The notes under the pieces: generated by a model
Databases searched by the model: none
What the model was told of the DNA's origin: nothing
Seen by the model: only the letters and a program-made list of their open reading frames with translations
Part shown: positions 1,553-57,592 of the stretch, in pieces
How the letters are laid out: every line of letters starts with the position of its first letter
Numbering within the stretch: position 1 is the first letter of the stretch
DNA from: Pseudomonadota bacterium
GTDB lineage: Bacteria; Desulfobacterota; Desulfobacteria; Desulfobacterales; JBDRRP01
Assembly: GCA_043825735.1 (NCBI GenBank)
Contig: JBDRRP010000037.1
Span: forward strand, 1 to 58,468
Direction of reading: 5' to 3'
DNA: 58,468 bases
Made by a program: the position numbers and the translations under genes

Positions 1553-2221
1553 ATGAAAAACGATCACAAAAAAAACCTTTTAGACGCGATAATCGATATA
1601 AATAGAGACGCTGCCATGAGATCAATAGAAAGCGCTTTGAGTGAAGGGCTGTCACCGGAAACGATCGTTTTTAATATACTAATTCCGGCAATGGAGGATT
1701 TGGCTGAAATTGTTCGTGTTGGACCGGATGCAACCTTGGCTCAACTATATTTAGCATCCCAAATCTCCTCCGAAATTTCAGATCAATTGATTCCAAAGTT
1801 CGAACTCAAGACTGAAATCAAAGGAAAGATTGTAATCGGCACTGCTTATGAAGATTTTCATGGATTGGGGAAAAAAATTGTAATCGGTTGTATAAAATCA
1901 CAAAGGCTGGAAGTTATCGATCTTGGCCTGAGTGTATCTGCCGAAAGATTTGTCGAGACTGCCGTAGAAAATGAGGCTGATGTGATTGCGGTCTCATCAA
2001 TGATGCTTCACACTGCTCGAGGACCTAACGGCCCAATTAAAGTTAGAAACCTTATCGACAAAGAAAACTTGAAAAACCGTGTTCGTCTTATTGTAGGGGG
2101 TGCGCCCTATCGCTTTCACACGGATCTCTTCAAGGAGGTAGGAGCTGATGCTTGGTCTGATAACGGCATTAGCGCAGTTAAAGTAATTATCGATTTGATT
2201 AAGGAGGTTCGTCCATCATGA
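1553..2221 (+). CDS. Corrinoid (cobalamin)-binding protein, MtaC/MttC-like (cap plus B12-binding domain)
   Basis: DxHxxG motif (EDFHGLG), then VSSMM and IVGGAP; N-terminal helical cap; GGAG RBS. Confidence 0.9.
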   Translation: MKNDHKKNLLDAIIDINRDAAMRSIESALSEGLSPETIVFNILIPAMEDLAEIVRVGPDATLAQLYLASQISSEISDQLIPKFELKTEIKGKIVIGTAYEDFHGLGKKIVIGCIKSQRLEVIDLGLSVSAERFVETAVENEADVIAVSSMMLHTARGPNGPIKVRNLIDKENLKNRVRLIVGGAPYRFHTDLFKEVGADAWSDNGISAVKVIIDLIKEVRPS

Positions 2222-3246
2222 ACGCCATTGAACGCATTACCAACGTTATGATGGGCGAGATCCCCGATCGTGTTCCTATCATGGGCAACCTTCTTGAACA
2301 AGGCGCAAAGGAACTTGGCCTTTCAATACAAGACTATTATTCGAATGGCGAATACGTTGCAGAGGGCCAGTTACGGTTAAGAGATAAGTATGGTTACGAT
2401 AATCTTTCCGGTTTTTTTTATGCGGGACTGGAAGCAGAAATGTTAGGATGCCGTCGAATTATATTTTCAGAAATAGGGCCGCCCAACGTGGGCCATTTAA
2501 TTATTAGGAATTTCAATGATATTGAAAAACTCGAAATACCAGAAAACATATCTCAATTACCAGCTTTTGAAGAACTTGCCAAATGCATAAAACTTTTAAA
2601 GCATGAAGCCGCTGGAAAATATCCGGTCGGAAGTGCCGTTATAAGCTCGTTTTCCCTTCCCGCAATCCTTATGGGAATTGACAAATGGATGGATATGCTA
2701 ATCAACGGCCCAGAAAGCCTTCGCCATGAGCTCTTAATAAAGTGTTCTAATTTTTGTATCAGATTAATGAATGCGTTAAAGGAGACTGGCGTCGACGGTG
2801 TCTCGTATTCAAACCCGGTGGGTTCAGCAGATTTTTTTAGTGTGGAACAATTCAAGAAGCTCGCCTTGGAATGGATCGTAAGAGATATGAAAGCGGTTGG
2901 GCCGGAGGGGATCACCTATTTCAATGGTGGGGGCAGAATTAACCCGATGATAGATACAATTATCGAACATACGCAAATTACAACATATTATATTAATCCT
3001 TTAGATGATACTTCAGAAGCAAAAAGAATAATTGGAAATCGTGGTGTCAGCAGTGGCGTTATCAACGATATCAGACTTATGGACTGGAATAAGAAAGAAA
3101 TTTATTCAGAAGTGAAATCCATAATGAACGCAGGAGCAAAAGGCGGTCGTTTCATTTTTGGAACACTTGTCATGCCTTATTTATTACCTGAAGAAAACAT
3201 TCACCACCTTTTCAATGCAGCTATAGAATATGGGAATTATTCATGA
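2218..3246 (+). CDS. Uroporphyrinogen decarboxylase/MtaA-superfamily protein
   Basis: 342 aa with PDRVP N-terminal motif and KGGRFIFGT C-terminal motif; ATGA overlap with the corrinoid gene. Confidence 0.85.
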   Translation: MNAIERITNVMMGEIPDRVPIMGNLLEQGAKELGLSIQDYYSNGEYVAEGQLRLRDKYGYDNLSGFFYAGLEAEMLGCRRIIFSEIGPPNVGHLIIRNFNDIEKLEIPENISQLPAFEELAKCIKLLKHEAAGKYPVGSAVISSFSLPAILMGIDKWMDMLINGPESLRHELLIKCSNFCIRLMNALKETGVDGVSYSNPVGSADFFSVEQFKKLALEWIVRDMKAVGPEGITYFNGGGRINPMIDTIIEHTQITTYYINPLDDTSEAKRIIGNRGVSSGVINDIRLMDWNKKEIYSEVKSIMNAGAKGGRFIFGTLVMPYLLPEENIHHLFNAAIEYGNYS

Positions 3247-3842
3247 TCGGTGCTAAATCAAAAGAATGGCCCGAGATAGTATCATGCGGGATATTAAAAA
3301 GGGAGATCCGCTATCTTGCCTATAAGAATGAATGGCCTGTTAAATTGAGGTTCCTCGACTCGTCTTTACATATAGATCTTGAGAAGTTATCAAAATCCTT
3401 AAAAAGGATCTTGTCGAAAAACATCAACCGTGAAAAAATAGTCGTTTACGGTTCATGCCACCCGCAAATGGATGATATCCTCAGCAGTGTCAACGCAGTC
3501 AGAACGCCTTGTCAAAACTGCGTTGAACTACTTCTTGGGAAAAGGGAGTTTACGGAAAAACTGTCAAAAGGGGCATTTTTCCTTTTCGAAGATTGGGCCA
3601 GGCGGTGGGAGGAAATCAGCTATGGTTACTTTAAGAACTGGGACATAATGCGAGAGATATTTCAAGGTGCACATAATTATATTTTGTGCATTGAAACACC
3701 CTGCTCTACCGATTTTAAAAGCTATGCAAAGGAGATAAGTTATAAGATTGGATTGCCGGTTGTATGGGGACGATATGATTTGAACCGTTTAGAACGGGCA
3801 TTGAAGCAAAGTGTTCTTAGCTCTATTGGGAGGATTATCTAA
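3243..3842 (+). CDS. DUF1638-like protein
   Basis: Motifs IVSCGILKREI, LDSSLH, VYGSCHP, CQNCVELLLG; ATGA overlap; this family typically neighbours corrinoid methyltransferase genes. Confidence 0.75.
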   Translation: MIGAKSKEWPEIVSCGILKREIRYLAYKNEWPVKLRFLDSSLHIDLEKLSKSLKRILSKNINREKIVVYGSCHPQMDDILSSVNAVRTPCQNCVELLLGKREFTEKLSKGAFFLFEDWARRWEEISYGYFKNWDIMREIFQGAHNYILCIETPCSTDFKSYAKEISYKIGLPVVWGRYDLNRLERALKQSVLSSIGRII

Positions 3843-5947
3843 TGACAGCGGAGAATGCTGGCCTTAGAAATACAATTAAGGATTTGGAAGAACGCCCTAG
3901 AGCTTCCAATCGAGAAAAAGCAAACCTTCAAATGGCAATTAACCTCATTCACCAAGTTTCCAATGCAACTGGTGTTATAGATGTCGTAGATCATATTCTT
4001 AGGGTATTGGTAAGCGCAATTGGAGGCACCAATATTTCGATATATTATGAAGCAGATGGTCGATGGCGCTATGTCGACATTTTGGGAGATAAATTATGGT
4101 TTGATAGAATCGATGATGATTTGGTAAAGAAATGCATTGAAGAAAAGTCATTTCAAAAAGAACGAGAGGCGGAAGATTCAACCATAACGATTCCAGGATT
4201 TCCTAAAACTTACGAAACATGGGTATATCCCCTTCAGGTACACAACTATTTGTTTGGTGCTATGCGTTTACAGGGTATGGCCATTGAACACGCTCATTAT
4301 AGAGATAATATTGATCCGTTCATTCAATATTCAGCATTGGTTTTATATCATGAAATATCGAACCTCAGGAGTTTACAATCGGCATATCAAAAAGTTCGTG
4401 AAGCAAAAGAAGCACTTCAAGCCTCGGAAGAGAAATTTTCAAAGGCGTTTAACAATGCTCCGATAATTATGACAATAAGTTCAGTTGAAGATGGGAGCTA
4501 CATTGATGTTAATGATGCTTTTGTGCAGCAAACCGGATATACACGAGAGGTGGCTTTAGGTTCGACTTCAGTAAAGATAGGCTATATTTCAAAATCAAAT
4601 CGAGAAAGAATGTTGGATCAACTAAAATCCAATGGAAGAATTCACAATCTTCAACTTGAGCTCAATAAAGCAGATGGGAACAAATTGGTCTGCCTCTATT
4701 CAGGAGAACTTGTCGAGATTGAAGGAGCAGAGAGGTTACTATCCATTGCGGTTAACATCACCGAACAACGAAAATATGAAATGCGGCTGCAAAATACTCA
4801 AAGAATGGAATCCATAGGAAACCTTGCCGGTGGGATAGCCCATGATTTCAATAATATTCTATTTCCAATTATCGGCATGTCCGAGCTGCTTGTAGAAGAC
4901 CTGCCATCTGGCAGTGTAGAGCGAGAAAATGCAGAAGTAATATTCAGAGCAGGCAAAAGGGGTAGTGACCTTGTTAAACAGATATTGGCTTTCAGCCGCC
5001 AATCCGAACAAAAAAAAATGCCGATTCGTGTCCAGCATATACTCAAAGAGGTGATGAAGCTGAGTCGTTCAGCTATTCCTATGAACATCAACATTACACA
5101 GGATATCCAAAGCGATTGCCCAATGGTGGAGGCAGATCCCACCCAGGTTCATCAGATCGCCATGAATCTAATCACGAACGCCTACCATGCAGTTGAGCCG
5201 AAGAGTGGGGAAATCGCTGTTCGGCTCAGGCAAGTTGAGATAGGATCTTACGAACCCGACGTCGAGAAACTTCTGCCGGGGAGGTATGCGCTGCTGTCTG
5301 TCTCCGACACCGGGGTCGGGATAGATCCTGCCATTATGGAAAAAATTTTCGAACCCTATTTTACGACTAAGGAAAAAGACAAGGGAACCGGCCTCGGTTT
5401 GGCCGTCGTCTACGGGATCGTAAAAGACCATCACGGCGATATCAGGATATATAGCGAATTGGAAAAAGGAACGACTTTCAACGTATACCTTCCCATAATG
5501 GCACAAGCTGAAAATGCGGTATCGATTGAGGGTAAAGAAAAATCTCCGACAGGACATGAACGCATACTGTTGGTTGACGATGAAGAGGCCATTGCAAAGC
5601 TGGAAAGGCAAATGCTTGAACGACTTGGCTACAAGGTGACCATGCGCGTAAACAGTCTGGAGGCTTTGGAAACGTTCAAAACCAAACCCGACTTGTTCGA
5701 CTTGGTCATTTCAGACATGACCATGCCGAACATGACCGGAGACCGATTGGCGCGTGAAATGATAACAATCCGGCCTGAAATACCCATCATCATTTGCACA
5801 GGGTTCAGCGAAAGACTTGATCCGGTGAAGGCTGCGAGCATCGGAGTCAGGGGCTTTCTAATGAAACCGATCGTTAAAGCGGAAATGGCCAAAACGATCA
5901 GGAAAGTGCTTGATGAAGCCGAAGTCAGAACCCTCAAGAAATTCTGA
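3842..5947 (+). CDS. Cytoplasmic hybrid sensor histidine kinase (coiled coil, GAF-like, PAS, HisKA, HATPase, receiver)
   Basis: H-box AHDFNN, N-box, DTGVG, GTGLGL, receiver LVDDE/SDMTMP; no TM segment; TAATG overlap with DUF1638. Confidence 0.92.
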   Translation: MTAENAGLRNTIKDLEERPRASNREKANLQMAINLIHQVSNATGVIDVVDHILRVLVSAIGGTNISIYYEADGRWRYVDILGDKLWFDRIDDDLVKKCIEEKSFQKEREAEDSTITIPGFPKTYETWVYPLQVHNYLFGAMRLQGMAIEHAHYRDNIDPFIQYSALVLYHEISNLRSLQSAYQKVREAKEALQASEEKFSKAFNNAPIIMTISSVEDGSYIDVNDAFVQQTGYTREVALGSTSVKIGYISKSNRERMLDQLKSNGRIHNLQLELNKADGNKLVCLYSGELVEIEGAERLLSIAVNITEQRKYEMRLQNTQRMESIGNLAGGIAHDFNNILFPIIGMSELLVEDLPSGSVERENAEVIFRAGKRGSDLVKQILAFSRQSEQKKMPIRVQHILKEVMKLSRSAIPMNINITQDIQSDCPMVEADPTQVHQIAMNLITNAYHAVEPKSGEIAVRLRQVEIGSYEPDVEKLLPGRYALLSVSDTGVGIDPAIMEKIFEPYFTTKEKDKGTGLGLAVVYGIVKDHHGDIRIYSELEKGTTFNVYLPIMAQAENAVSIEGKEKSPTGHERILLVDDEEAIAKLERQMLERLGYKVTMRVNSLEALETFKTKPDLFDLVISDMTMPNMTGDRLAREMITIRPEIPIIICTGFSERLDPVKAASIGVRGFLMKPIVKAEMAKTIRKVLDEAEVRTLKKF

Positions 5948-6063
5948 CGTTGAGCGTTTAAGGAAATGGTTTTTTAGTGAAAAGGAGCTACATGCAATAA
6001 TGCATGGTTCCAGGGCCGTACTCGGACAAAACGGTTTTACGGAATCGGCTCGCGCTATTTTCG

Positions 6064-6192
6064 ACCACAGGGTATTGGAAAAGGATTGAATCCTATATCA
6101 GTGAACGTTCTGAGCCAGAGTTCGGCCATAGCATTTGCCTGGAATGTGCGAAAAAATGTTACCCCGATATAAGTATTTACTATGAGAATTGA
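6064..6192 (+). pseudogene. Detached remnant of the Cys/His-rich C-terminal module common on deltaproteobacterial signalling proteins
   Basis: GYWKRIESYISERSEPEFGHSICLECAKKCYPD matches the GYW..IE.YI...S...FSHGICP.C..KLYP pattern; the first CxxC half is missing. Confidence 0.6.
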
Positions 6193-6363: not shown

Positions 6364-9201
6364 ATGGTAAGTGTAATAATGAAAAAGAAAAATATAGGGA
6401 TCCAAAATTTTCTGACCAAAAGTATGGTGATCATTGCCTCTGTAATGTTTAGCCTATTACTTTTAGTCTGGGTTGTGAATGAATATTATGCTTTCTCTTC
6501 TGCAACTAAATCATTGAAAGAGGAGTATGAGTATGCACAAAAGACAATGCTTAAACAAGAGGTCAACAATGTAGTCAACTATATTGATTACATGAAAGAT
6601 CAAACCGAAAGAAGGCTGAAATCTGAATTGAAGAATCGTGTTAACGAAGCCCTCGACATTGCGAGGAACATATATCAGGAGAACATTGATTCAAAACCCC
6701 TATCTGAGATCGAAAAAATGGTCAAAGACGCCCTAAGACCTATACGGTTTCTTGAAGGCAGGGGATATTATTTTGCATTTTCAGTGGACGGAATTGAAAC
6801 GCTTTTTGCCGATAGGCCTGAAATGGAAGGGAAGAATATGCTTCCGGTCCAAGGGGCTAAAGGAGAATTTGTCGTTAAGGACATGATCGACCTCGTTAAG
6901 AAACAAGGCGAAGGATTCTACCAATACACTTGGACAAAGCCATCCCAGAAGGAGATAGGTTTTTTAAAAATTGCGTATGTGAAATATTTCAAACCGTTCG
7001 ATTGGGTTTTTGGAACAGGTGAATATCTCGATGATTTTACCAATCAAATCCAAAACATTGTTTTGGAAAGGATCGTAAACCTTAGATTTAGCGAAGGAGG
7101 TTACTTTTTTGGCAGCACAGAAGGTGGATATCCATTATTCACGAATGGGGAAATAACTAAAGATACCGATCCCATTTGGGAAATGACCGACCCCAATGGC
7201 GTAAAAATCATCCAAGAACAACAAAACGCCTCGAAGCAACCTGATGGAGGCTTTGTTCGATATTCCTGGCCGAAGATGGGATCTCCAACTCCCGTGCCCA
7301 AGATTTCATTCGTACGTGAAATACCGGAATGGGGCTGGACAATCGGGGCTGGTGTATCTCTCGATACCGTTGAAAAATTAATTCCAGAATCCAGAGACAC
7401 ATTGAAAAAAGAATTAATCAAGAAAAGCATAACCAGCATTTGTGTGCTCATCGGTTTTATTGTTTTAATATGGTTTTGGGCTAAACGCGTGGCGAACAAA
7501 ACCCATGAAACCATCGAAACATTTGAAAAGTCATTTAGGGAAGCGACTACGGCTTTTGTTGCCATACCGACTGATGATATGCAGTTTTCAGAATTGTCCC
7601 GCATTGCCGAATCAGCGAACAAAATGATCGAAGTGCTTAAAAAGACAGAGAAATCGATGCAGGAGAGCGAGGCACTGCTCCGGGGATTATTCGACAACAT
7701 GGGCGCCGGGGTTGCGATTTATGAAACCCCCGATGAAGGGCAACGTTTCGTTTTCAGGGAGTTGAACCGGCATGGCCTCGCATCCGGACAGCTAAAAAAG
7801 GAGGATGTCATCGGCCTCGAGGTCAGGGATGTATTCCCCGGGGTCGTGGCGCTAGGCTTGTTCGAGGTCTTTCAAAACGTCTGGAAAACAGGCCTGGCCC
7901 AGCGGCACCCCAGCCGGATTTACCAAGATGGCAGAATTACGCTGTGGGTGGAAAATTACGTTTTCAAACTGCCTTCAGGCCAGTTGGTGGCCATCTACGA
8001 GGACACAACGGCCAAACGGCAGGCCGAGGTTGCCAGGGATGCGATGGAAAAGCAATTGCTGCAGGCCCAGAAGATGGAGTCCGTGGGACGGCTGGCCGGC
8101 GGCGTGGCCCACGATTTCAACAACATGCTCAGCGTGATCCTCGGGTACACCGAGATGGCTCTGGAGCAGTCGGGCCCGGATCACCAACTGCATTCGGCCC
8201 TGCAGGAGATCAAGAATGCGGCCCAGCGCTCTGCCGACGTCACCCGTCAGTTGCTGGCCTTTGCCCGTAAGCAAACCATATCGCCCAAGCTGATCGACCT
8301 GAACAAGACGGTTAAAAGCATGCTCAAGATGCTACAGCGCCTCATCGGTGAGAACATCGCTCTGGTCTGGCTGCCGGCAAGCGACCTATGGCCGGTGCAC
8401 ATGGACCCGTCCCAGATCGATCAGATCCTCGCTAATCTTTGCGTCAACGCCCGGGACGCCATCGCCGGTACGGGCAAAATCACCCTTGAAACCGGCAAGG
8501 TGAGCTTTGATGCCGCGTACTGCGTGGATCACCCGGGTTTTGTCCCCGGTGATTTCGTCCTGCTGACGGCCAGCGACGACGGCTGCGGCATGGACAAACA
8601 GATCATGGCCAACCTGTTCGAGCCGTTTTTCACCACCAAGGACGTGGACAAGGGCACCGGTCTGGGCCTGGCTACGGTATACGGCATCGTCAAGCAGAAC
8701 AACGGCTTTGTAAACGTGTACAGCGAGCCGGGCAAGGGCACCACGTTCAAGATCTACCTGCCGCGCTATCAACCAACCGGGGACGAGGTCCAGGAAACAG
8801 CCCCGTTGGCGCCCGATGTCCGGGGCAGCGAAACCATCCTGCTCGTGGAGGACGAATCGGCGATCCTGAAAATGACAACCATGATGCTTCAACGCCTGGG
8901 TTATACCGTTTTGGCCGCGGCCACGCCCGGACAGGCCTCCGACCTTGCCCGGAAGCATTCAGGCCAGATCCATCTGCTTATGACCGACGTGGTGATGCCC
9001 GAAATGAACGGCCTCGATCTGGCCAGGCGCCTGCAATCGGTTTATCCCGACCTCAAGTGCCTGTTTATGTCCGGTTACACGGCCAATGTTATCGCTCACC
9101 ATGGAATATTGGATGAGGGCGTGCATTATATCCAAAAGCCTTTTTCAAAGAAGGATCTGTCCGTCAAGGTGCAAGAATCGCTGGGTAAGGATAGATCCTA
9201 A
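6364..9201 (+). CDS. Membrane hybrid histidine kinase with tandem periplasmic Cache domains, PAS, HisKA/HATPase and receiver
   Basis: Two TM segments flank two Cache-type repeats (GYYFAF..YTWTKP..WVFGTG; GYFFG..YSWPK..WTIGAG); AHDFNN; receiver TDVVMP. Start may be ATG 6379. Confidence 0.93.
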   Translation: MVSVIMKKKNIGIQNFLTKSMVIIASVMFSLLLLVWVVNEYYAFSSATKSLKEEYEYAQKTMLKQEVNNVVNYIDYMKDQTERRLKSELKNRVNEALDIARNIYQENIDSKPLSEIEKMVKDALRPIRFLEGRGYYFAFSVDGIETLFADRPEMEGKNMLPVQGAKGEFVVKDMIDLVKKQGEGFYQYTWTKPSQKEIGFLKIAYVKYFKPFDWVFGTGEYLDDFTNQIQNIVLERIVNLRFSEGGYFFGSTEGGYPLFTNGEITKDTDPIWEMTDPNGVKIIQEQQNASKQPDGGFVRYSWPKMGSPTPVPKISFVREIPEWGWTIGAGVSLDTVEKLIPESRDTLKKELIKKSITSICVLIGFIVLIWFWAKRVANKTHETIETFEKSFREATTAFVAIPTDDMQFSELSRIAESANKMIEVLKKTEKSMQESEALLRGLFDNMGAGVAIYETPDEGQRFVFRELNRHGLASGQLKKEDVIGLEVRDVFPGVVALGLFEVFQNVWKTGLAQRHPSRIYQDGRITLWVENYVFKLPSGQLVAIYEDTTAKRQAEVARDAMEKQLLQAQKMESVGRLAGGVAHDFNNMLSVILGYTEMALEQSGPDHQLHSALQEIKNAAQRSADVTRQLLAFARKQTISPKLIDLNKTVKSMLKMLQRLIGENIALVWLPASDLWPVHMDPSQIDQILANLCVNARDAIAGTGKITLETGKVSFDAAYCVDHPGFVPGDFVLLTASDDGCGMDKQIMANLFEPFFTTKDVDKGTGLGLATVYGIVKQNNGFVNVYSEPGKGTTFKIYLPRYQPTGDEVQETAPLAPDVRGSETILLVEDESAILKMTTMMLQRLGYTVLAAATPGQASDLARKHSGQIHLLMTDVVMPEMNGLDLARRLQSVYPDLKCLFMSGYTANVIAHHGILDEGVHYIQKPFSKKDLSVKVQESLGKDRS

Positions 9202-9497: not shown

Positions 9498-9613
9498 TCA
9501 TTACCATTCTTGACAGAACATGCGAATCCCTGGATATTGATGCTGCTCACTGGAGCGCCATCATCTTGTGACGCGGCAGGGACTTACACACATTCGAAAT
9601 GTGGAATAACAGC

Positions 9614-10216
9614 ATGCAACCCTTTATCGCCTGCCACGAATGCGATCTACTTCAAAAGATCCGCCCCCTTCCGGCCGGCAGCGTGGCTATCTGCCCCCGT
9701 TGCGGTGCCGTCATCCGGCGCCACAAGAAAAACGGTGTCGAGCGGGCGCTGGCCTACACCATTGCCGGAATCGTATTGTTCTCTGTGGCCAATGCCTTCC
9801 CCCTAATGTCGTTCAAATTCCAGGGGCAGCTTCGAGAAACCACCCTGATCACCGGCATCGTGGAGCTTTATCGAGGCGGCATGGTTGCTGTTGCCGTTTT
9901 GGTGATGTTGACCACAATCTTGGTGCCACTGCTTCATTTGCTTGGCATGCTTTACGTCCTGCTGCCGCTTCGGTTTGATCGGCTGCCGCGGCATCTGGCG
10001 CCGGTGTTTCGGATTGTCCGCGGCTCACAGTCCTGGAGCATGATGGAAGTGTTCATGCTGGGCATCCTGGTGTCCCTGGTGAAACTGGCCAAGATGGCCG
10101 AAATCGTACCGGGGCTTGCCCTGTTTGCTCTTTTTGCCCTCATCGTGGTGATTGCCGCCGGAACATCTTCTCTGGATCCCCATCGCATCTGGGAACGAAT
10201 GGACGCCCACCCATGA
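9614..10216 (+). CDS. pqiA: Paraquat-inducible protein A (N-terminal-half type)
   Basis: CHECD and CPRC zinc motifs, TM helices, WSMMEVF and SLVKL motifs. Confidence 0.9.
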   Translation: MQPFIACHECDLLQKIRPLPAGSVAICPRCGAVIRRHKKNGVERALAYTIAGIVLFSVANAFPLMSFKFQGQLRETTLITGIVELYRGGMVAVAVLVMLTTILVPLLHLLGMLYVLLPLRFDRLPRHLAPVFRIVRGSQSWSMMEVFMLGILVSLVKLAKMAEIVPGLALFALFALIVVIAAGTSSLDPHRIWERMDAHP

Positions 10217-10845
10217 CAACCCCGGCTCTCACGGCAAAACGCGCATCGATGCTTAGCTGCCACAGCTGCCATTTGTTGAGTCGCGTACCGATGTCTAAAG
10301 GCCAATTGCGGTGTCCGCGCTGCGGGGCCAGTCTGCATTCGCGAAAGCCCAACAGTATTATGCGTACCTGGGCGCTGGTCATTGCCGCATATATCTTTTA
10401 CATCCCGGCCAATGTCCTGCCGGTCATGACGACCATCTCCATAGGCAGCGTCAAGACGGATACCATCATGAGCGGTGTCATTTACTTCGTACGGACCGGC
10501 ATGTGGCCCCTCGCCCTGATCATCTTCGTGGCCAGTATATTTGTGCCGCTTTTAAAACTGTTCATCCTGACACTGCTGTTGATCACCGTGCAGCGCAGAT
10601 CGCGATGGCGCCGGAAAGACCGCACGCGCCTGTATCGCATCACGGAGGTGATCGGCCGCTGGTCGATGGTGGACATCTACGCCATTACCATTCTGGTGGC
10701 CCTGGTGCACATGGGCTCCCTGGCGACCGTTTCCGCCGGGCCTGGAGCCGTTTTTTTTGCGGCGGTCGTCGTCATCACCCTGTTTGCCGCCATGAGTTTC
10801 GATCCTCGCCTGATCTGGGATACGGAGGAGTTGGAGCATGACTGA
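10213..10845 (+). CDS. pqiA: Paraquat-inducible protein A (C-terminal-half type)
   Basis: CHSC/CPRC, YIPANVLP, GRWSMVD and FDPRLIWD motifs. Confidence 0.92.
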   Translation: MTTPALTAKRASMLSCHSCHLLSRVPMSKGQLRCPRCGASLHSRKPNSIMRTWALVIAAYIFYIPANVLPVMTTISIGSVKTDTIMSGVIYFVRTGMWPLALIIFVASIFVPLLKLFILTLLLITVQRRSRWRRKDRTRLYRITEVIGRWSMVDIYAITILVALVHMGSLATVSAGPGAVFFAAVVVITLFAAMSFDPRLIWDTEELEHD

Positions 10846-12574
10846 GTTCAAAAACGGAATCGACAATATGGATGACATGCCCGAAGCGATCATCCACCAG
10901 CGGACGAGGCAGATATCGTTCGTATGGATCATACCGCTCGCGGCGCTGATCATCGGCGCCTGGCTGGTGGTGAAAACGTTCACGGAGAAAGGCCCCACCA
11001 TCACCATCGCCTTTACTTCGGCCGAAGGTATCGAAGCAGGCAAGACGAAAATCAAATACAAAGATGTCGAGGTCGGTAAAATTACCAAAATCGATCTCAG
11101 TCCGGACCTGAGTCAGGTAATCCTGACCGCCGAGATGCAAAAAACCGTGAAACGGTTTTTATCGGTGAACACCCGGTTCTGGGTGGTGCGGGCACGCGTG
11201 GCGGCCCGGGAGATTTCGGGGCTGAGCACTTTGTTTTCCGGAGCATACATCGGTCTGGATCCCGGCGAACCCGGAGAACCCGGCGAACATTACATAGGCC
11301 TCGACACCCCCCCCGTCATTACATCCCACCTGGAAGGCCGACAATTTATCCTGGTCGCCGAACGATTAGGGTCCATCGACATCGGCTCGCCGGTGTATTT
11401 TCGGCAGATCGCAGTGGGCCGGGTGATCGGCTTTTCGCTGGATTTGAAACGCCAGAACATTCTGGTAAAAGTGTTTATAAATGCGCCCTACCACTCGTTG
11501 GTAAAGGAAAACTCCCGGTTCTGGAATGCCAGCGGGGTGGACTTTTCGCTGGACGCGACCGGCGTCCGCCTGGCCACGGAGTCTCTGGTATCTATGGTGA
11601 TCGGCGGAGTGGCCTTTGACACGCCGGTGAACTTCGGCAGCGACGCACCGGCCAAAGAAGGCGATATTTTTACACTGTATAGCGGCAAATCCCAGATCTT
11701 TGAAGAAACCTATGAATATAAAAAACTGTGGCTCCTCCAGTTCGACGGATCGGTGCGGGGGCTTTCCGTCGGGGCACCTGTGGAGCTCAGAGGCATTCGG
11801 CTCGGCAAGGTTCTGGACATCAATGTGGAATTCTCCCCGAAGGGCCAGGGAATCCACGTCAATGTGCTGATCGAAACCGAACCGCAACGCGTCGGCGCCC
11901 CAATGTTGGCTGATGACGATTTTCATCAGCTCATGGACCAATGGGTGGCCCAGGGCATGCGGGCGCAGCTGAAGACCGGCAACCTGATCACCGGGCACCT
12001 GTACGTGGAAATCGACTTCCATCCCAACGCGCCGACAGCGGTGATCGATTGGGCCGGTCGTTACCCGCGGCTGCCGACCCTGCCCGGGAATCTGGAAATC
12101 ATCACGGCCAGCGTGACCAACCTTCTCGACAAAATGTCGAACCTGCCCATCCAGGAAATCGGCCGAGATTTACGGAACATGGCCCAGGGGATGAGCGCCC
12201 TGGTGAATTCCGACGAAATGCGGCAGGCCCTCACCGATCTGAGCCATACGATGAAGGAAACCAAAATACTCGCGGCCTCCCTGAACCAGAATCTCCCGCC
12301 GGCCGTCGACAAAGCCAACGGCATTCTTGAAGATATCCGGAAGTTGTCCAATCACCTCAACGACAAGGTGGTGCCGGCCGTGGACGAAACCCTGAAACAT
12401 GCCCAGACGGCAATGACCGGGGTCGCCGGCACAGTTGGCCCGGATTCGCAGACGATGCGCCAGCTCAACCGGGCGCTCGTCGAACTGGCCGAAGCAGCCA
12501 AGGCGTTCCGGGGGCTGGCCGACTATCTGGAACGGCATCCGGATGCATTGATCTATGGAAAGGGAGAAAAGTGA
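10838..12574 (+). CDS. pqiB: Intermembrane transport protein PqiB (MCE/MlaD domains)
   Basis: VWIIP anchor, three MCE repeats (GIEAGKT, GSPVYFR, GLSVGAPV), C-terminal YLERHPDALIYG. Confidence 0.92.
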   Translation: MTEFKNGIDNMDDMPEAIIHQRTRQISFVWIIPLAALIIGAWLVVKTFTEKGPTITIAFTSAEGIEAGKTKIKYKDVEVGKITKIDLSPDLSQVILTAEMQKTVKRFLSVNTRFWVVRARVAAREISGLSTLFSGAYIGLDPGEPGEPGEHYIGLDTPPVITSHLEGRQFILVAERLGSIDIGSPVYFRQIAVGRVIGFSLDLKRQNILVKVFINAPYHSLVKENSRFWNASGVDFSLDATGVRLATESLVSMVIGGVAFDTPVNFGSDAPAKEGDIFTLYSGKSQIFEETYEYKKLWLLQFDGSVRGLSVGAPVELRGIRLGKVLDINVEFSPKGQGIHVNVLIETEPQRVGAPMLADDDFHQLMDQWVAQGMRAQLKTGNLITGHLYVEIDFHPNAPTAVIDWAGRYPRLPTLPGNLEIITASVTNLLDKMSNLPIQEIGRDLRNMAQGMSALVNSDEMRQALTDLSHTMKETKILAASLNQNLPPAVDKANGILEDIRKLSNHLNDKVVPAVDETLKHAQTAMTGVAGTVGPDSQTMRQLNRALVELAEAAKAFRGLADYLERHPDALIYGKGEK

Positions 12575-13191
12575 CTATGGCGCTCAAGCATTGGGTAACC
12601 ACCGCGCTGGTGGTGTTCGCGGCCATCGGCTTGACCTCCGGCTGCCGGAGTGCCTCCCCGGCGACCAGTTTTTATACGCTGACCGCCGTGGTCCCGGCAC
12701 CCGGGGCCGTCATCGGAAACGACACCGCGCCGCCACCGGCGATCATCGGCGTTGGCCCGGTCACCGTGCCAAGGATGCTCAACCGGGCACAAATCGTCAC
12801 GCGCGCAACGCCGAACCGGGTAACCATGAATGACTTCCACCGGTGGGCCGGCGACCTGGAAGACAACTTTCTGCATGTCCTGACGGAAAACCTGGCGGCC
12901 CTGGTGGTGCCCCACCCGGTGCGCGCATTCCCGTGGGAAGCGTTGGACGCGCCCCGGTATCGCGTGGCCGTGACCGTCCACCGTTTGGATGGCAGCCTTG
13001 AGGGCAGCATCGTCATGGATGTGATCTGGAACGTTACCGATATCGACGCCGGGAAACAGATTTTATCGAAACGATCGGTGGTCAGCGAGGCTGTGGAAAA
13101 GCCGGATTACGAATCATTCGTGGCAGCGCAAAGCCGCGCCATTGGCGTTCTCAGCAAAGAAATGGCCGACGCCTTGAATGCACTGATGTAA
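12571..13191 (+). CDS. pqiC: PqiC-family outer membrane lipoprotein
   Basis: Lipobox TSGC, IGVGPV, HRWAGDL; follows pqiB. Confidence 0.85.
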   Translation: MTMALKHWVTTALVVFAAIGLTSGCRSASPATSFYTLTAVVPAPGAVIGNDTAPPPAIIGVGPVTVPRMLNRAQIVTRATPNRVTMNDFHRWAGDLEDNFLHVLTENLAALVVPHPVRAFPWEALDAPRYRVAVTVHRLDGSLEGSIVMDVIWNVTDIDAGKQILSKRSVVSEAVEKPDYESFVAAQSRAIGVLSKEMADALNALM

Positions 13192-13442: not shown

Positions 13443-14960
13443 TCACCTCATCAAAACGAATCGTCCCTTGAGTTGCTGCGCATCCGGCGACAGTGATGGC
13501 GTCTGCTGGACATTTAACGACTTGGCCTCATCCTCGACCAGCGGTTTGACATAGTCGTAAATCTCTACGATATCCTTTTTGCCGTCCTTGAGCGCTTTGA
13601 GAAAATAGTATGTGAAAACGCCGTGTCCTTTTTCAGGTGACGATGTGCTGATCTGAGAGCCCTGGCTCGCGGTAAGAACCGCCATGTTTTCTGATATAAC
13701 CCGCGTATCTGTCGTCATTACCAAAGGCCTGGCGCCTTTTGCGAGAACACTTCTGCCGCCAGAACCTGAAAAACATGAATCCAGAACCACGATAATCTCC
13801 TTTGCTCCCAGTTCCGCCAACCGCGCATAAAGTCTTTTCAGGGGATAACCGGTCACAGCCAGATAATTCGGATCGCCGTCATAGGGAACAATGAAAGCTT
13901 CACCGGTTAAAGGATCGGGAGCCCCATGGCCCGAATAATAAACAAACACATTTCCGCCCTTCTTGAGCTTATTTGGCAGCCAGGCTTCAATCGATTTCAT
14001 AATCCCTGACAGCGTTGCCTTTTCATCGGTCAGCAATTCGATGTTTCTCTCCTTTACTCCCAGCGCCTTAAAGTAATTTTTTACCAGCACGGCATCGTCG
14101 TATGAGTAATCGGATTTCGGCAAACTACTATAACCTTCAATGCCGATAATGATTGCGAAATCATTATCGCCCATGATTTTTGATTCTGCGCCGAAAACAG
14201 GATTGTCGATATCGGATTGAACCGCGGCGCCTGACTTTATGTCTTTGCTTTGAGCTTGCGTTGCATTTTCAACTGCGGATTTAACAATATTGGCCAAGTC
14301 TTCTTTGGATATGCCTTGAGAGACATTGGCTTGCGGGGCGTTCTGCCCGGCCTTGAACTGGCTAAGTAACGCTATGCCGTTATTGGCTTTATTGTAGGCC
14401 TCTCTATTTGCCGGGCTATCTAAATAGGGTGCATTTCCTGCGGCATGGTTTTTAAGCGCCTCTATTGCCAAATCCAGATCCGCCCCATGATTTAATAATA
14501 TTCTAACGGTCTCCTTTTGTCTCTGGCCGCCCATCGCCGCCACAGATAGGGGCGTCTGGTTTCCATATCCGGCGTCAACGCTAAACCCTTTTGCCAAGAG
14601 TTTTTCAACGATGTCATTATAGCCGCCATAGGCCGCATAATATAAAATATTGCTGGTACATGAACCGCCGCTATTCATTTTTTCATAAGCCGCGTTAATC
14701 AAAAAACCGTATACTTCAGGTTTAAACTCGGCAACATAGTCTAATGGCGAGAGCCCGTAATCTCCTGAGGGCTCGCATGGATCAGCCCCTTTATTGAGCA
14801 ATTCTTTGACGGCATCGACATCGCCTCGCTCTGCGGCCTTTCCCAAAGGTGAGGCGGGCCCTACTGACACGCAACCGGCAAGAAGAAGCGAGAATACAAG
14901 AATTAATAACAAAGGAGGGAATACAATTATTCCCCTATCGAAGGATAACGCTTTCTTCAT
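13443..14960 (-). CDS. Lipoprotein with ankyrin repeats and a caspase-like (peptidase C14) domain
   Basis: Lipobox LAGC, ankyrin motifs (SPLGKAA, TPLSVAA), catalytic YSGHG and DSCFSG. Confidence 0.88.
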   Translation of the reverse strand: MKKALSFDRGIIVFPPLLLILVFSLLLAGCVSVGPASPLGKAAERGDVDAVKELLNKGADPCEPSGDYGLSPLDYVAEFKPEVYGFLINAAYEKMNSGGSCTSNILYYAAYGGYNDIVEKLLAKGFSVDAGYGNQTPLSVAAMGGQRQKETVRILLNHGADLDLAIEALKNHAAGNAPYLDSPANREAYNKANNGIALLSQFKAGQNAPQANVSQGISKEDLANIVKSAVENATQAQSKDIKSGAAVQSDIDNPVFGAESKIMGDNDFAIIIGIEGYSSLPKSDYSYDDAVLVKNYFKALGVKERNIELLTDEKATLSGIMKSIEAWLPNKLKKGGNVFVYYSGHGAPDPLTGEAFIVPYDGDPNYLAVTGYPLKRLYARLAELGAKEIIVVLDSCFSGSGGRSVLAKGARPLVMTTDTRVISENMAVLTASQGSQISTSSPEKGHGVFTYYFLKALKDGKKDIVEIYDYVKPLVEDEAKSLNVQQTPSLSPDAQQLKGRFVLMR

Positions 14961-17490: not shown

Positions 17491-18792
17491 TCAGAGCACC
17501 ACCTTCCAGATCACCCCGACGGCAGCGCCGATGGGGACCAGGTAGTGCACGGGAAAATGATATTTCTGAAGCAGCAGCAGGGACAGCGCGGCGGCGGCCA
17601 CGGCAAAGGCGTCGATGCCGCCGCCGGGCAGGGTCACCTTGATGCCGAACCACACCGCCAGGTTGAGGATCACGCCGACCACCGCCGCGGTAACCCCGGT
17701 GAGCGCCGCCTGGAGCCGCTGGTTGCCGGCCATGGCCTCGATATAGGGGGCGCCTGCGAAGATAAAGAAAAAGCAGGGCAAAAAAGTGACGTAGGTGGTG
17801 ATCAGCGCGCCGAAAATACCCGCCGTCAACGGGGTGAGACCTCCCGGCAGGTGCCAGGCCCCCAAAAACCCCACGTACTGGGTCACCATGATGAGCGGGC
17901 CGGGCGTGGACTCGGCCAGGCCGAGACCGATCAGCATCTGCGCCGTCGTGAGCCAGCCGTTGGTCACCGCCACGTCGGTGATGTAGCTCAGCACGGCGTA
18001 GGCGCCGCCGAAGGTGACGAAGGCCGCCTTGGTGAAAAACAGGGCGATCCGGGTCAGGGTGCCTTCCGACCCGTGCCAGACCCAAACACCGCCGACGACA
18101 AGACCCCACAGGACCGCGCAGACGAGAAAAACCCGGATGACATGGACGAAAGATGGCGCAACGCGCGCCTGCCCGAGGTCGGTTTCGGCTTTTATGCGGC
18201 ATTCCCGCGATTGCAGATCGAAGTCGCCCTTGCAAAAAACTTGAGGCCACCGGCGCTGCATGAGAAGGCCCCCCAGGGCCGCTGCAGCGACAATGGCGGG
18301 AAACGGCACTTTGAAGAAAAAGATAGCGACAAACGCCGCCACGGCAAATCCATAGAGCATGTGATGCTTGAGCGCCTTCTTGCCGATGCGCAGCACCGCT
18401 TCCACCACAACAGCCACCACCACCGGCTGGATGCCATAGAAGGCGGCGGCCACCAGCGGCACGTCGATGTGGGCCACGGCCAGATAGCTGAGCAGCATCA
18501 TGAGGAAAATCGAGGGAATCACGAAAAGCGATCCAGCAGCGATGCCGCCGATCGTGCCGTGCAGCCGCCAGCCGATATAGGTGGCGAGCTGCTGGGCCTC
18601 CGGGCCGGGCAGCAGCATGCAGAAATTGAGCGCCCGCAGGAACTGGCTCTCACCGATCCACCCCCGCCGCGTCACCACCTCCTGGTGCATGATGGCGATC
18701 TGCCCGGCCGGACCGCCGAAACTGATAAAACCCAGTTTGGTCCAGAATTTCAGCGCTTCCTTGAAAGGCACAGTTGACATTGCAGTGTTCAT
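17491..18792 (-). CDS. chrA: Chromate efflux transporter
   Basis: SFGGPAGQIA, LLPGPEAQQ, TFGGAYAVL and ESTPGP motifs in two homologous halves. Confidence 0.95.
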   Translation of the reverse strand: MNTAMSTVPFKEALKFWTKLGFISFGGPAGQIAIMHQEVVTRRGWIGESQFLRALNFCMLLPGPEAQQLATYIGWRLHGTIGGIAAGSLFVIPSIFLMMLLSYLAVAHIDVPLVAAAFYGIQPVVVAVVVEAVLRIGKKALKHHMLYGFAVAAFVAIFFFKVPFPAIVAAAALGGLLMQRRWPQVFCKGDFDLQSRECRIKAETDLGQARVAPSFVHVIRVFLVCAVLWGLVVGGVWVWHGSEGTLTRIALFFTKAAFVTFGGAYAVLSYITDVAVTNGWLTTAQMLIGLGLAESTPGPLIMVTQYVGFLGAWHLPGGLTPLTAGIFGALITTYVTFLPCFFFIFAGAPYIEAMAGNQRLQAALTGVTAAVVGVILNLAVWFGIKVTLPGGGIDAFAVAAAALSLLLLQKYHFPVHYLVPIGAAVGVIWKVVL

Positions 18793-20057
18793 TCAGAGCT
18801 CCTATTGACAGACGTCGCCGGCATATCGCGGCCGAAAACCGCAAATCCCACAGTGCCGATGACCCCGAAAACGAACGCCGCGATCAGATTCGTTTTTGGG
18901 CTGATCTGCCATAAAAAAGCGCCGCCCAATGCGGCCGCAGCGACGAAAACGTCCCGGATCAGGTAGTAAAGCCCGAACATGCCCGCCTTGCAGTGATCCG
19001 GGGCTAAATCCATGATCAATGACTTTCGGGTGGGCTCACCGAATTCCTTGAGCCCCCTCAGAATGAACGCGGCAACGAGCCACTCGAAAGAGCGGCTGAA
19101 AAGCAGCACCAGGGGAAACAAGGTGAAAAAAACAAAGGTCATGAGCACGAAGGGCTTCTTAGTGCTGCGGTCGGCCAGGTAGGCCACCGGGATGTACACC
19201 AGCACGGCCGTGGCCATTTCGATGGTGGTCAGCACCCCGAACTGCAGTGCCGAGATAGGCGATGCGATGGTCTTCATGCACCAGACCACCACAAAGGCGT
19301 AAGGAATCTGCTCGCAGAACCGGATGAGAATATCGGAGACCAGAAGCCGCTTCATGGAAGGGTTCATGAGCCGAAAGAGTTTCAGGGGGTTTTTCTCAGG
19401 CGTAAGCGTGCAGGCATCGCCCGAAGGCCGGGCCGCCGGGCCGTCATCGGCGATCATCCGCTGCTGGAACACCAGCGCCACGAAAGCCATTATAAATGCG
19501 GCTCCGAATGCGAGCCGGACACCGTCGCGCTCGCCCCACACGCTGATAAAAAGCCCGCCCAGCAGTGGGCCGAGCGCCATGGGGATGCGCCTTACCAGCG
19601 AGTGCATGGTCACGCCCATGGTGCGCTTGTCCGCGGGCAGCACCTTGTAGATCAGGCTCACGGTAGCCGGCAGAGAGATGGCCGACCAGGAAATGAACAG
19701 CACCGCGCCTGCCAGCACCGCCTGCCAGGCCGGCACCAGGAGCACCAGTGCGAATCCTGCCATGGCCACCAGGTTGAAAATCAGCAGCGACTTTTTGGTG
19801 CCCAGCCGATCGGACAGATAACCGCCCGGAAAGGAGTAGAGGGCCGACAGCAGGTTGTCCATGGCCTGCAAAAGACCAATGGCCAGCACGCTCCCCCCGA
19901 GGGCCAGGATGTAGATGGGTAAAAACCGCTCGGCCATCCGCTCGCCCATGCCCAGCAGGATCACCATGGCCAGAACACCCAGGGTGCTGCGTTGCAGACC
20001 GAGAAACCTGCTGATGCTGCCGGCAGCGGAGCGGGGGGGTGTCTTGTTATTTTCCAT
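18789..20057 (-). CDS. MFS transporter within the chr operon
   Basis: About 12 hydrophobic segments; GYLSDRLG motif A; overlaps the chrA start. Confidence 0.88.
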   Translation of the reverse strand: MENNKTPPRSAAGSISRFLGLQRSTLGVLAMVILLGMGERMAERFLPIYILALGGSVLAIGLLQAMDNLLSALYSFPGGYLSDRLGTKKSLLIFNLVAMAGFALVLLVPAWQAVLAGAVLFISWSAISLPATVSLIYKVLPADKRTMGVTMHSLVRRIPMALGPLLGGLFISVWGERDGVRLAFGAAFIMAFVALVFQQRMIADDGPAARPSGDACTLTPEKNPLKLFRLMNPSMKRLLVSDILIRFCEQIPYAFVVVWCMKTIASPISALQFGVLTTIEMATAVLVYIPVAYLADRSTKKPFVLMTFVFFTLFPLVLLFSRSFEWLVAAFILRGLKEFGEPTRKSLIMDLAPDHCKAGMFGLYYLIRDVFVAAAALGGAFLWQISPKTNLIAAFVFGVIGTVGFAVFGRDMPATSVNRSSE

Positions 20058-20069
20058 GAAGCGTTCCCT

Positions 20070-20507
20070 TTAGTCCTGAGCCTTCGCCACTTCCAGCCGG
20101 CACCAGGCATACAGTGCGTCATAGACCTCGAACTGCCTCTCGATGTTTTCCAGGTCGTCTGGAAATCGGATGCTGTAGCCCACGGCGATAGCTTCGAATC
20201 CTGCCGCCAGCGGATCGGCGTCCAGCCGGTTCGTATCGGCAGCATTGACGATCCTGGCCATCCTCAGCAGCGCGGCATCGGTCAGCTCGTAATCCTGGAT
20301 AATCACCGTGAAGGTGCACCGGTCTCCCCGATGATGCAGCACGGCCCCTGGGGTATCAAAGGGTATGGCGCCGATCTTTTCGGCCGTTTCCATCACCTTG
20401 CTTTTAGGGACGAACAAAAACTCGGCATCCGAGTCGATAAAACGGGTGATCAGCCACGGGCAAGCCACGCGGTCCACGTGCACGTGAGATCGGGTGATCC
20501 ATTTCAT
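20070..20507 (-). CDS. ChrB C-terminal-domain protein (ChrF-like)
   Basis: MKWITR..HVDRVACPWLITRFID and YDALYAWC motifs. Confidence 0.88.
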   Translation of the reverse strand: MKWITRSHVHVDRVACPWLITRFIDSDAEFLFVPKSKVMETAEKIGAIPFDTPGAVLHHRGDRCTFTVIIQDYELTDAALLRMARIVNAADTNRLDADPLAAGFEAIAVGYSIRFPDDLENIERQFEVYDALYAWCRLEVAKAQD

Positions 20508-20563
20508 GTCAATACTCCTTTATTATGGGGATGTCAGTTGAGCCTGCCGCTGCCCGAACCCGA

Positions 20564-21538
20564 TTAATTGCCCTTTTGCCGCTGGTAATAGGCATACAGA
20601 TTGTCAAACAACCTGCAGCCCTCGACCATTCGCCGGTCGTCGTCCGCCTGAGAGGCCATAAGACCGGTCAGCAGGGCCTTGAACCCGTCGGTTTCACTGC
20701 GGCCGTACTTGCCGTCTTTCAGATCGATGTCGTGAACGATTTCGGCCATAGAAACAAGCGTCCGGTCCTTGGGCAGCAACCGCTGGATCATCACCTCAAA
20801 CGTACAGCAACCCCCCTCGTGGGTGTATTCACCCTCGAACATATCGAACCGAAGCTCTCCGGATCCGGGAGTATATTGAGGATCGGGGACAAACTTGAAA
20901 GTCGCCGCGCGATCCACAAAGCGCAGAATCAGCCAGCCGCAGGCCAGGCGGTCGACAAAGAGGTTTTCACGGGTCACCCAGGTCCTGCCTTTCAGTTTTC
21001 CAATCGCCTCGGAAAGGGGGTTGCCCGTCGATGCCTGACCGGCCAACCGGACTTCAAGATTCTGGAGCAAAATCTCAGCCGTTCCCCGCTCGGGTGCTTT
21101 GAAAAAATCGATGGCTACGAGATCATTCAACCGACGTGCCAGACGGGACAATTGCGAAGGGCCCTTTATAGCCGGATCCTGTGGGTCGCCCTGATCGGAA
21201 GACCATTCGGCGAGCAGAGTATTGGCCTCCTGGATAATTTTTTGATAATCCGAGGCCCGCGCATTTTGAAACAGGGAGATCATCTGTTCGTCAGTCAGGC
21301 CTTCCACAAACCGGGCCTCGGCGATGGACCCGTCTCCCCCCCCATCGACAATCTCCCTAAGGGTCCAGGTCAAATCTTCACGGGACTGCTCGGTAAACGG
21401 CAGGACGTAAACCGATTGCTTGATCGTCACTGCTCCGATCTGTTGCAGTCGCCGCCATATTTTTACGCGCAAGGCAGTGGGCCTGGGCGGTATCTGATGC
21501 ACCAGCAGCAACCATTTTCTTTCGTTAACAGATATCAT
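20564..21538 (-). CDS. chrB: Chromate-responsive regulator ChrB
   Basis: N-domain WLLLVHQIP..RVKIWRRL plus C-domain WVTR..VDRLACGWLI.RFVD. Confidence 0.9.
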   Translation of the reverse strand: MISVNERKWLLLVHQIPPRPTALRVKIWRRLQQIGAVTIKQSVYVLPFTEQSREDLTWTLREIVDGGGDGSIAEARFVEGLTDEQMISLFQNARASDYQKIIQEANTLLAEWSSDQGDPQDPAIKGPSQLSRLARRLNDLVAIDFFKAPERGTAEILLQNLEVRLAGQASTGNPLSEAIGKLKGRTWVTRENLFVDRLACGWLILRFVDRAATFKFVPDPQYTPGSGELRFDMFEGEYTHEGGCCTFEVMIQRLLPKDRTLVSMAEIVHDIDLKDGKYGRSETDGFKALLTGLMASQADDDRRMVEGCRLFDNLYAYYQRQKGN

Positions 21539-56070: not shown

Positions 56071-56134
56071 ACAACCTCCCTTTTCTCATGCGGCAGGGCG
56101 AAAGGCCGCTGAAGGCCTTTCGCCGTGAACGCCA

Positions 56135-57475: not shown

Positions 57476-57592
57476 CGTTGTCTCCTTATATAGTTTGAGC
57501 TGCGAATCCTCAGTCCGGTCTCAAGATAAAGGATAATGGCGGTCGGAGCGAGGCGCCGGCAATTGCGCGGCGCCTCACCCCGACAAGCCGTA

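Follow-up and report, generated by a model that had tools for sequence, protein, structure and literature searches.

The stretch of DNA analysed here in full (the window) is the 58,468-nucleotide contig JBDRRP010000037.1 of assembly GCA_043825735.1, from a bacterium placed in the Desulfobacterales. Its subject is a cassette of four open reading frames, all on the + strand and lying within positions 1553-5947: a corrinoid protein gene (1553-2221, 222 aa), a gene for a barrel of the URO-D/MtaA fold (2218-3246, 342 aa), a DUF1638 gene (3243-3842, 199 aa), and a kinase gene of the GAF-PAS-HisKA-HATPase_c-REC type (3842-5947, 701 aa). The genes are chained by overlapping junctions (ATGA at 2218-2221, ATGA at 3243-3246, and TAATG at 3840-3844), exactly as a preliminary description of this DNA had claimed, and a purine-rich stretch precedes each of the four starts, the weakest being that of the DUF1638 gene. 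The products match B12-binding_2 and B12-binding, URO-D, DUF1638, and PAS, HisKA, HATPase_c, and REC of Pfam, all above the curated cut-offs; no NCBIfam methyltransferase or corrinoid model attained its cut-off for any of the four, and neither the H-NOX nor the FIST haem domain gave a Pfam match in them. No substrate-specific methyltransferase (MT1), MtaA-type methyltransferase (MT2), RACo activator, or transporter was found in the unit or in the adjoining genes, and the promoter and terminator scans stayed at chance level (16 versus 12.6 +/- 3.9 and 7 versus 4.9 +/- 2.5, respectively). This cassette is a conserved unit that recurs over several phyla with intact frames, and because it recurs with interchangeable outputs, it probably converts the chemical state of B12 to a cellular signal.

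The search seeded with DUF1638 gave 29 genome loci, from Desulfobacteraceae, Geobacteraceae and relatives, Ca. Thiodiazotropha, Ignavibacteriota, Acetobacterium, Eisenbacteria, and Spirochaetaceae, and the same GAF gene follows DUF1638 in 27 of them, the exceptions being L019, where DUF1638 is isolated, and L029, which ends inside the gene. With the barrel as the seed, 80 metagenome loci were taken (the top 80 of 115 confirmed), and clustering the pooled 106 barrel-bearing loci at 90% identity produced 80 clusters. In 73 of the 73 clusters with at least 300 bases upstream, the corrinoid gene adjoins the barrel gene. Among the 62 clusters with at least 1.3 kb downstream, the GAF domain lies within 1 kb in 59 and anywhere in the locus in 60, and DUF1638 follows the barrel in 54. 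Of the trio that had been suggested, DUF1638, which is absent in 8 of the 62, is thus optional in the family. In the converse search, started from the GAF domain, the domain turned up in 5 of 401 genomes of the source phylum (counting the source genome itself). Three further sets of 301 genomes, each centred on another carrier and counting that carrier, yielded 38, 2, and 3 positives. DUF1638 or the barrel is directly upstream of GAF in 32 of the 35 loci from these three carrier-centred searches, and a same-clade barrel is present in 38 of the 43 GAF-positive genomes.

The barrel family of the window and two sister clades group in a quick tree (local support 96). All six sampled sister-clade members have as neighbours a corrinoid gene and a gene for DUF1638 or a similar protein, and an apparent signalling protein is next or fused to them, as judged by eye except in Azoarcus KH32C, whose sister cassette comprises a corrinoid protein, a barrel, and a kinase headed by a DUF1638-like domain. 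The Azoarcus KH32C cassette (L138, on plasmid pAZKH) lies near formylmethanofuran dehydrogenase and quinoprotein-relay genes, a setting of one-carbon (C1) metabolism. Thiodictyon represents a fourth lineage, with a corrinoid protein, a barrel, RACo, and a GAF-GGDEF protein. Cultured carriers of the DUF1638 gene are Citrifermentans bremense, for which alone among the four the full gene order was checked, Geoanaerobacter pelophilus, Pelobacter seleniigenes, and Geobacter sp. AOG2. No title or abstract describing the cassette was found in a literature search of a mainly open-access library, and the cassette is apparently undescribed so far.

The last gene of the unit encodes a hybrid histidine kinase, in which the HisKA His (His334), the HATPase boxes, and the receiver Asp (Asp625) are all present. 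It comprises an N-terminal helix and GAF domain, the cassette-specific input (residues 1-190, 3842..4411), a PAS domain by Pfam (residues 197-308, 4430..4765), the number and type of which differ between relatives, a CckA/NtrB-like HisKA (His334) and HATPase_c part (4817..5497), and a receiver domain (Asp625) identified by Pfam and a residue check, which runs with the gene end over 5564..5947; all lie on the + strand. Residues 1-190 have no Pfam match, but language-model features (0.97) and the predicted structure (template modelling (TM) score 0.70-0.78) are GAF-like. No 19-residue hydrophobic window above 1.8 was detected in the four proteins, whereas the neighbouring membrane kinase, taken as a control, had 16, and we therefore agree with the earlier view that this is a cytoplasmic kinase with a GAF-like N-terminus.

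The GAF profile matched 521 representatives at E <= 0.001 and 330 at E <= 1e-30. The best 150 of these, many of which are fragments, carry HATPase_c (100), HisKA (72), HisKA_2 (8), HWE (3), and HisKA_3 (2), and, as other domains, GGDEF (3), PocR (3), SpoIIE (2), and HD_5 (1); judging from these counts, kinases are the main output behind GAF and the others are rare. The cassette copy of Acetobacterium, for example, ends in GGDEF. A strong hydrophobic window is lacking in 147 of the 150, and GAF is N-terminal except where DUF1638 is fused ahead of it. The expectation that neighbourhoods would reveal swappable outputs behind a conserved N-terminal GAF was thus borne out, with four kinase classes, GGDEF, HD, and SpoIIE, and several genomes hold two or three full cassette copies with different outputs. 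When pairwise identities are compared over 44 complete cassettes, the four parts vary together (Spearman 0.69-0.77) more closely than they do with the kinase core (0.44-0.63, in the 34 cassettes having one). In one relative a PocR kinase gene overlaps the start of the corrinoid gene (L029:3840-5297), and in another a MEDS protein is encoded just upstream (L064:3589-5280); PocR and MEDS are linked to small C1 or hydrocarbon ligands, and these neighbours, which are single cases, fit an alkyl-donor signal.

The corrinoid protein consists of a cap helix bundle and a Rossmann domain, and has the DxHxxG...SxL/M...GG motif together with the cap (D101-x-H103-x-x-G106, S148-x-M150, and G182-G183). D101, H103, G106, S148, and G182-G183 are invariant in 53 of the 53 aligned corrinoid sequences, and Q64, M150, M151, and H153 are additional family-specific invariants. 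The protein is predicted from these residues to bind a cobamide in the base-off/His-on form. Its cap is unlike both known types (methyltransferase corrinoid protein and CarH). The aromatic cap residues that cover the methyl group, as seen in 1y80 and in a corrinoid protein encoded on contig C120 of the same genome, are replaced in the cassette family, and the probable upper cobalt side carries His in 46 of the 53 sequences and Leu in the protein of the window. The source genome also holds, on contig C17 (10043-10831, - strand), a corrinoid gene that belongs to the Azoarcus-type sister clade and stands as an orphan, no barrel partner being present in the genome; it has a C-terminal CxxC tail and is perhaps the remnant of a second cassette.

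Light was one of the signals put forward in the preliminary description, and a sensor of the CarH/AerR/photocobilin type would act through photolysis of adenosyl- or methylcobalamin; light sensing has been proposed for B12-binding domains in signalling operons (PMC8717448, in the text accessible to us). The cap and B12 architecture does match the B12 photoreceptor structures 8j2w, 8j2x, 8j2y, and 8jbs, but weakly (E 1e-11 to 2e-6), and the better matches are the methyltransferase corrinoid proteins 1y80, 7xcn, and 3ezx. Alkyl-cobalt bonds are photolabile, which also speaks for light. However, the photoreceptor cap motif, Trp-x9-Glu-His, is absent in 53 of 53 sequences: no Trp occurs in the columns counted round the expected position, and the Glu-His positions read H46/L6/M1 and then F44/Y9. 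Furthermore, photoreceptors require neither a barrel partner nor an activator, and the named carriers are mostly sediment or subsurface anaerobes. Because the cap motif is absent, the CarH-type identity was rejected and we consider light a highly improbable signal.

The second protein is a URO-D-type TIM barrel whose predicted model (predicted local distance difference test (pLDDT) 95.6) matches HemE and MtaA structures, with the top TM-scores of 0.85-0.86 to MtaA 4ay7/4ay8; 4ay7 is also its best sequence match among solved structures (E 5e-19). R18, D61, Y68, P89-N90, Y197, N283-D284, and M319-P320 are invariant. The His-x-Cys...Cys zinc triad of MtaA is not kept: in 53 barrels, with the register taken from the alignment to 4ay7 and set by hand over a short gap, the His position reads Y40/F13, the first Cys position C27/N25/S1 (Asn in the barrel of the window), and the last Cys position T52/N1. 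Judging from this alignment, the triad is lost across the family, though half of the barrels keep one Cys, and the description of the product as a zinc-less protein of the MtaA fold was correct. Its identity as an MtaA-type MT2 was rejected, since the triad is gone and the NCBIfam MtaA models score far under their cut-off. No HemE model was among the NCBIfam matches to the barrel, and HemE identity was likewise rejected; the HemE hallmark is presumably the N-terminal RQAGR arginines plus a catalytic Asp, the motif region in this family is Asn24 and Gln28, and identity to HemE structures is 14-17%. The barrel has a higher mean identity (56%) than the kinase core (38%) or GAF (35%), and its being more conserved than the kinase core argues for a maintained function rather than decay.

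DUF1638 has five invariant residues (C15, H43, C72, H73, and C93) in both the 133-sequence and the 44-sequence sets, which make a metal or iron-sulphur site possible. The predicted model (pLDDT 92.4) had no Foldseek match at E <= 0.001, the sequence had no match to solved structures, and the best VIA Z was 9.4 over 110 residues, among generic alpha/beta folds. The domain is fused to the barrel in P0005 and stands in front of GAF in P0220, P0261, L044, and L179; a single-protein search for longer DUF1638 relatives gave the barrel fusion only, and the GAF fusions came from the profile search. Genetic evidence from Phaeobacter inhibens connects DUF1638, together with a RamA-like protein, to the reactivation of B12, and in the text accessible to us no specific function was offered (bioRxiv 10.1101/192971); the tie is restated in the corresponding part of PMC12478193. 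At L019:7013-7597, a lone cassette-type DUF1638 gene comes after a cluster of S-adenosylmethionine (SAM)-methyltransferase, pyridine nucleotide oxidoreductase, and radical-SAM/DUF3641 genes.

A pterin-type methyltransferase occurs near only 1 of 114 loci, as found with two queries that did not include MttB, MtaB, or MtmB; the sole match is an AcsE-like gene about 2.5 kb upstream in L086. MttB was not found in the source genome. The preliminary description had allowed for trios that usually come with MT1/RACE genes and without signalling genes; the outcome favours a sensor instead, with a pterin-type acceptor at 1 of 114 loci and GAF in 60 of 62 clusters. RACo genes occur in 16 loci, corresponding to 8 of the 46 clusters with at least 2.3 kb upstream, and mostly lie directly before the corrinoid gene; nine tested cassette-linked RACo and a tenth copy located in trans form one clade (support 95/97). 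The earlier statement that the unit has no activator is therefore true of the copy in the window but not of the family, since the RACo clade is co-located in those 8 clusters. In Geobacteraceae-type genomes (L126-L131 and L135), a short RACo-like gene (409-418 aa, apparently without the ferredoxin domain) is located directly before purH. This single RACo of the Geobacteraceae was considered as the activator of the cassette, a candidacy weakened by its separate clade and its position beside purH.

These data bear on the reading that the cassette is a small metabolic or detoxifying corrinoid methyltransferase, composed of a zinc-free MT1 and its corrinoid protein, with MT2 and the activator supplied in trans and the kinase as a co-transcribed regulator whose GAF senses the substrate or product directly, without protein contact, following the logic of the mec cassette. 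Zinc-free MT1 enzymes do exist (CdmB; PMC13222342, available text), and mec carries a kinase, a corrinoid protein, URO-D-family methyltransferases, and an activator pair (PMC9768040 and bioRxiv 2021.08.30.458270, accessible portions). Both a pterin-binding MT2 and RACo, the latter by five genes, are encoded in the source genome, and RACo is found in cis as mentioned above. On the other hand, MT2 accompanies the unit in that one locus only, the signalling gene is last in the unit and translationally coupled, GGDEF, HD, and SpoIIE outputs do not directly regulate their own operon, DUF1638 is fused to the GAF protein in relatives, and full copies with differing outputs coexist within several genomes. 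The same genome also shows what a conventional operon looks like: contig C120 encodes a conventional corrinoid protein with the usual methyltransferase cap motif, a URO-D-fold protein, a major facilitator superfamily transporter, a pterin MT2, and RACo. We regard the metabolic reading as unlikely.

Wood-Ljungdahl methyl flux had also been named as a signal, and the cassette might report this flux or that of methionine synthase if it were loaded in trans by AcsE/MetH-type enzymes. Genes of the acsE-like, acsC/CdhD-family, and acsB types are in fact present at 55177-58468 (- strand) of the window, about 50 kb from the cassette, and the AcsE-like gene of L086 points the same way. However, CdhC (acetyl-CoA synthase) was found in just 5 of 28 carrier genomes, which are mostly incomplete metagenome-assembled genomes (MAGs), so that some misses are gaps; it was not found in the Acetobacterium MAG either. 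Because CdhC is so sparse among carriers, methyl flux is very unlikely as a general signal.

The first three genes of the cassette have a guanine plus cytosine (GC) content of 40-41% and the GAF part one of 39%, against 57.5% for the genome. The barrel gene was not found in the sole same-genus genome searched (97% complete), and on this ground, with the low GC alongside, the copy in the window was probably acquired. It might be asked whether the unit came together by chance or is what remains of a methyltransferase operon that has decayed on a low-GC island, as the base composition, the same-genus genome, and a decayed chemotaxis fragment upstream would allow. Against this, the same gene order is found in several phyla, where the frames are intact and conservation is high; chance clustering is contradicted by the gene-order counts in 80 clusters and by the GAF-seeded loci (32 of 35) and was rejected, and we give this explanation almost no credence.

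Several other features of the surrounding DNA were observed. Upstream (561-1112, and 568 to the contig start, - strand) there is a decayed copy of the region upstream of a pair of genes for CheW and a methyl-accepting chemotaxis protein (MCP), in three pieces with 75-85% DNA identity to a region of contig C17, and the window begins with the N-terminus of an apparent MCP paralog transcribed away from the cassette. Downstream, a short frame (6001-6192, + strand) has a CxxC motif resembling the tail of the C17 orphan corrinoid protein, and its DNA has three copies of 74-75% similarity elsewhere in the genome. It is followed by the membrane dCache hybrid kinase (6364-9201, + strand), the 5' part of which is 40% GC and the 3' part 58% GC; this suggests that the gene is a chimera located at the border of the low-GC stretch. 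Further along are pqiA/pqiB-type genes (9599-13191), an ankyrin-caspase protein (13443-14960), a chromate transporter with chrB (17491-21538), and a TPR-CHAT protein (43595-46723).

Taken together, we think it probable that the cassette is a cytoplasmic accessory sensor in which the state of cobalt, Co(I) versus alkylated or oxidised, controls a GAF-linked output, and the sensor interpretation of the preliminary description is thus partly supported. That the corrinoid state controls the kinase is something we infer from gene context and fusions. The corrinoid protein, as its motif predicts, would bind a cobamide base-off/His-on and, as the fold and co-inheritance suggest, would dock on the zinc-less barrel, which would shield the cobalt and gate its upper face. 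RACo, in cis or in trans and aided by DUF1638, may reset the cobalt to Co(I); this step draws on the RACo clade and the published work on DUF1638. An alkyl-Co(III) or an oxidised or ligated Co(II/III) form would then persist as the signal instead of being passed into metabolism, because no methyl acceptor is present. Finally, judging from the exclusivity of the association, the fusions, and the output swapping, the module may act on the N-terminal helix and GAF, and GAF would switch the kinase, cyclase, or phosphatase behind it. Because some copies have no DUF1638, the predicted partner of GAF is the corrinoid protein or the barrel.

Within the sensor reading, the leading candidate for the signal is an electrophile or small alkyl donor, for example a methyl halide: haloalkanes are delivered to Co(I) by the zinc-free CdmB (PMC13222342), and the existence of a dedicated activator points to chemistry at Co(I). 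Redox state or a ligand of the O2/NO type is a more tentative candidate, and fits the majority of cassettes without a cis activator and with the cap His; cobamide supply seems rather doubtful. We also put forward, with reserve, the idea that the cobalt-carbon bond serves as a memory: an alkyl donor from the environment, a methyl halide for instance, would be admitted by the metal-free barrel and alkylate the Co(I) centre of a dead-end corrinoid protein, which would then switch its dedicated GAF receptor, while a dedicated pair of RACo and DUF1638 would prime and reset the device.

A number of observations weigh against the sensor reading or parts of it. No activator is present in cis in 38 of the 46 clusters, including the copy in the window; none of the five RACo genes of the source genome falls inside the cassette RACo clade, the Geobacteraceae sampled have only the short form in a separate clade beside purH, and 5 of 28 carrier genomes gave no RACo at all (23 of 28 did). 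Since their RACo genes are outside the cassette clade, the resetting step is tentative for the source genome and the Geobacteraceae. The trio occurs without GAF in L085, where a REC-PAS gene is next, and in L098, where a GGDEF-EAL gene comes before, and a different gene follows DUF1638 in L092, which is too short for the count. Conversely, GAF has no trio upstream in 3 of the 35 carrier-centred loci, 5 of the 43 GAF-positive genomes lack a same-clade barrel (three have a sister-clade barrel only and two none), and DUF1638 stands alone in L019. CdmB is 429 aa long as opposed to 342 aa for the cassette barrel, and the match is weak and C-terminal only (E 6e-9). Moreover, the loci were seeded by similarity to the window, the samples overlap the seed set, and many carriers are kin, so that the counts show a strong association and not independent events.

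If the cobalt-carbon memory is true, the cassette would represent a light-independent B12 receptor family over many anaerobic lineages. Two roles of B12 proteins are known, in enzymes and in light sensing; a reader of cobalt chemistry in the dark would add a third, and would reveal a possible means by which anaerobes detect methyl donors, halomethanes, oxidants, or the supply of B12. DUF1638, which has a genetic tie to B12 reactivation and no mechanism, gains a testable role, and a GAF subfamily (the 330 representatives at E <= 1e-30) is now defined with a candidate partner. A direct test is feasible, as cultured carriers exist and all the parts are soluble.

Among known systems, the MtaC/MtaA and MtbC/MtbA pairs have the same two folds as the cassette, in which DxHxxG is intact. 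The cassette differs from them in having no MT1, in the loss of the zinc His and the last Cys in 53 of 53 barrels, in its changed cap residues, and in being almost always followed by a signalling protein. In the Cdm system, which serves chloromethane use in Acetobacterium dehalogenans, a URO-D-fold barrel that is zinc-free like that of the cassette works with a corrinoid protein and an activating enzyme. CdmB, which has a metal-free aromatic cavity and hydrophobic channels formed by extensions, channels haloalkanes to Co(I) and is thus the model for how a barrel without metal could bring an alkyl donor to the cobalt, but Cdm is catabolic and has an MT2 (CdmA), and the term histidine kinase is absent from the main text as available (PMC13222342). 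CdmB was not among the Foldseek matches listed for the barrel model. The mec cassette of dichloromethane degraders brings together in one cluster a kinase, a corrinoid protein, proteins of the URO-D family, and MecGH as the activator pair (PMC9768040; bioRxiv 2021.08.30.458270); we infer that MecG is DUF1638 from the citation of Price et al. by the mec authors. Compared by description in the accessible portions of these papers, mec differs in having a transporter, an MT2 (MecF), and several candidates for MT1, and its kinase bears a PocR domain and comes with a regulator of its own. In Phaeobacter inhibens, DUF1638 likewise has a corrinoid gene next to it and is linked in function with a RACo/RamA activator, but the pair serves methionine synthesis and, as far as the available text goes, has no barrel or kinase partner (bioRxiv 10.1101/192971; PMC12478193).

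CarH/AerR and the photoglobin-B12 proteins are similar to the cassette in using a cap plus B12 protein as the input, sometimes with kinase, GGDEF, or SpoIIE outputs; PMC8717448 treats signalling B12 domains as light sensors, and the words methyltransferase and uroporphyrinogen are absent from its available part. Unlike these, the cassette lacks the photoreceptor cap motif and has barrel, DUF1638, and RACo partners. In H-NOX/kinase and NosP/NahK operons, a stand-alone tetrapyrrole protein is encoded beside the soluble kinase or cyclase that it would control. The cassette is like them in that its cofactor protein is co-operonic with a soluble output and the outputs are interchangeable, and unlike them in the predicted use of a cobamide rather than haem and in the presence of a barrel and of a GAF domain specific to the cassette. 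AmzR and MsmS/RdmS of Methanosarcina, which we take to sense methyl metabolism in methanogens, presumably both reuse methyltransferase folds, but they are single proteins with no separate corrinoid protein. Our verdict is that the cassette, although not a member of the H-NOX, CarH, MtaA, or HemE families, probably acts like an accessory tetrapyrrole sensor coupled with a kinase.

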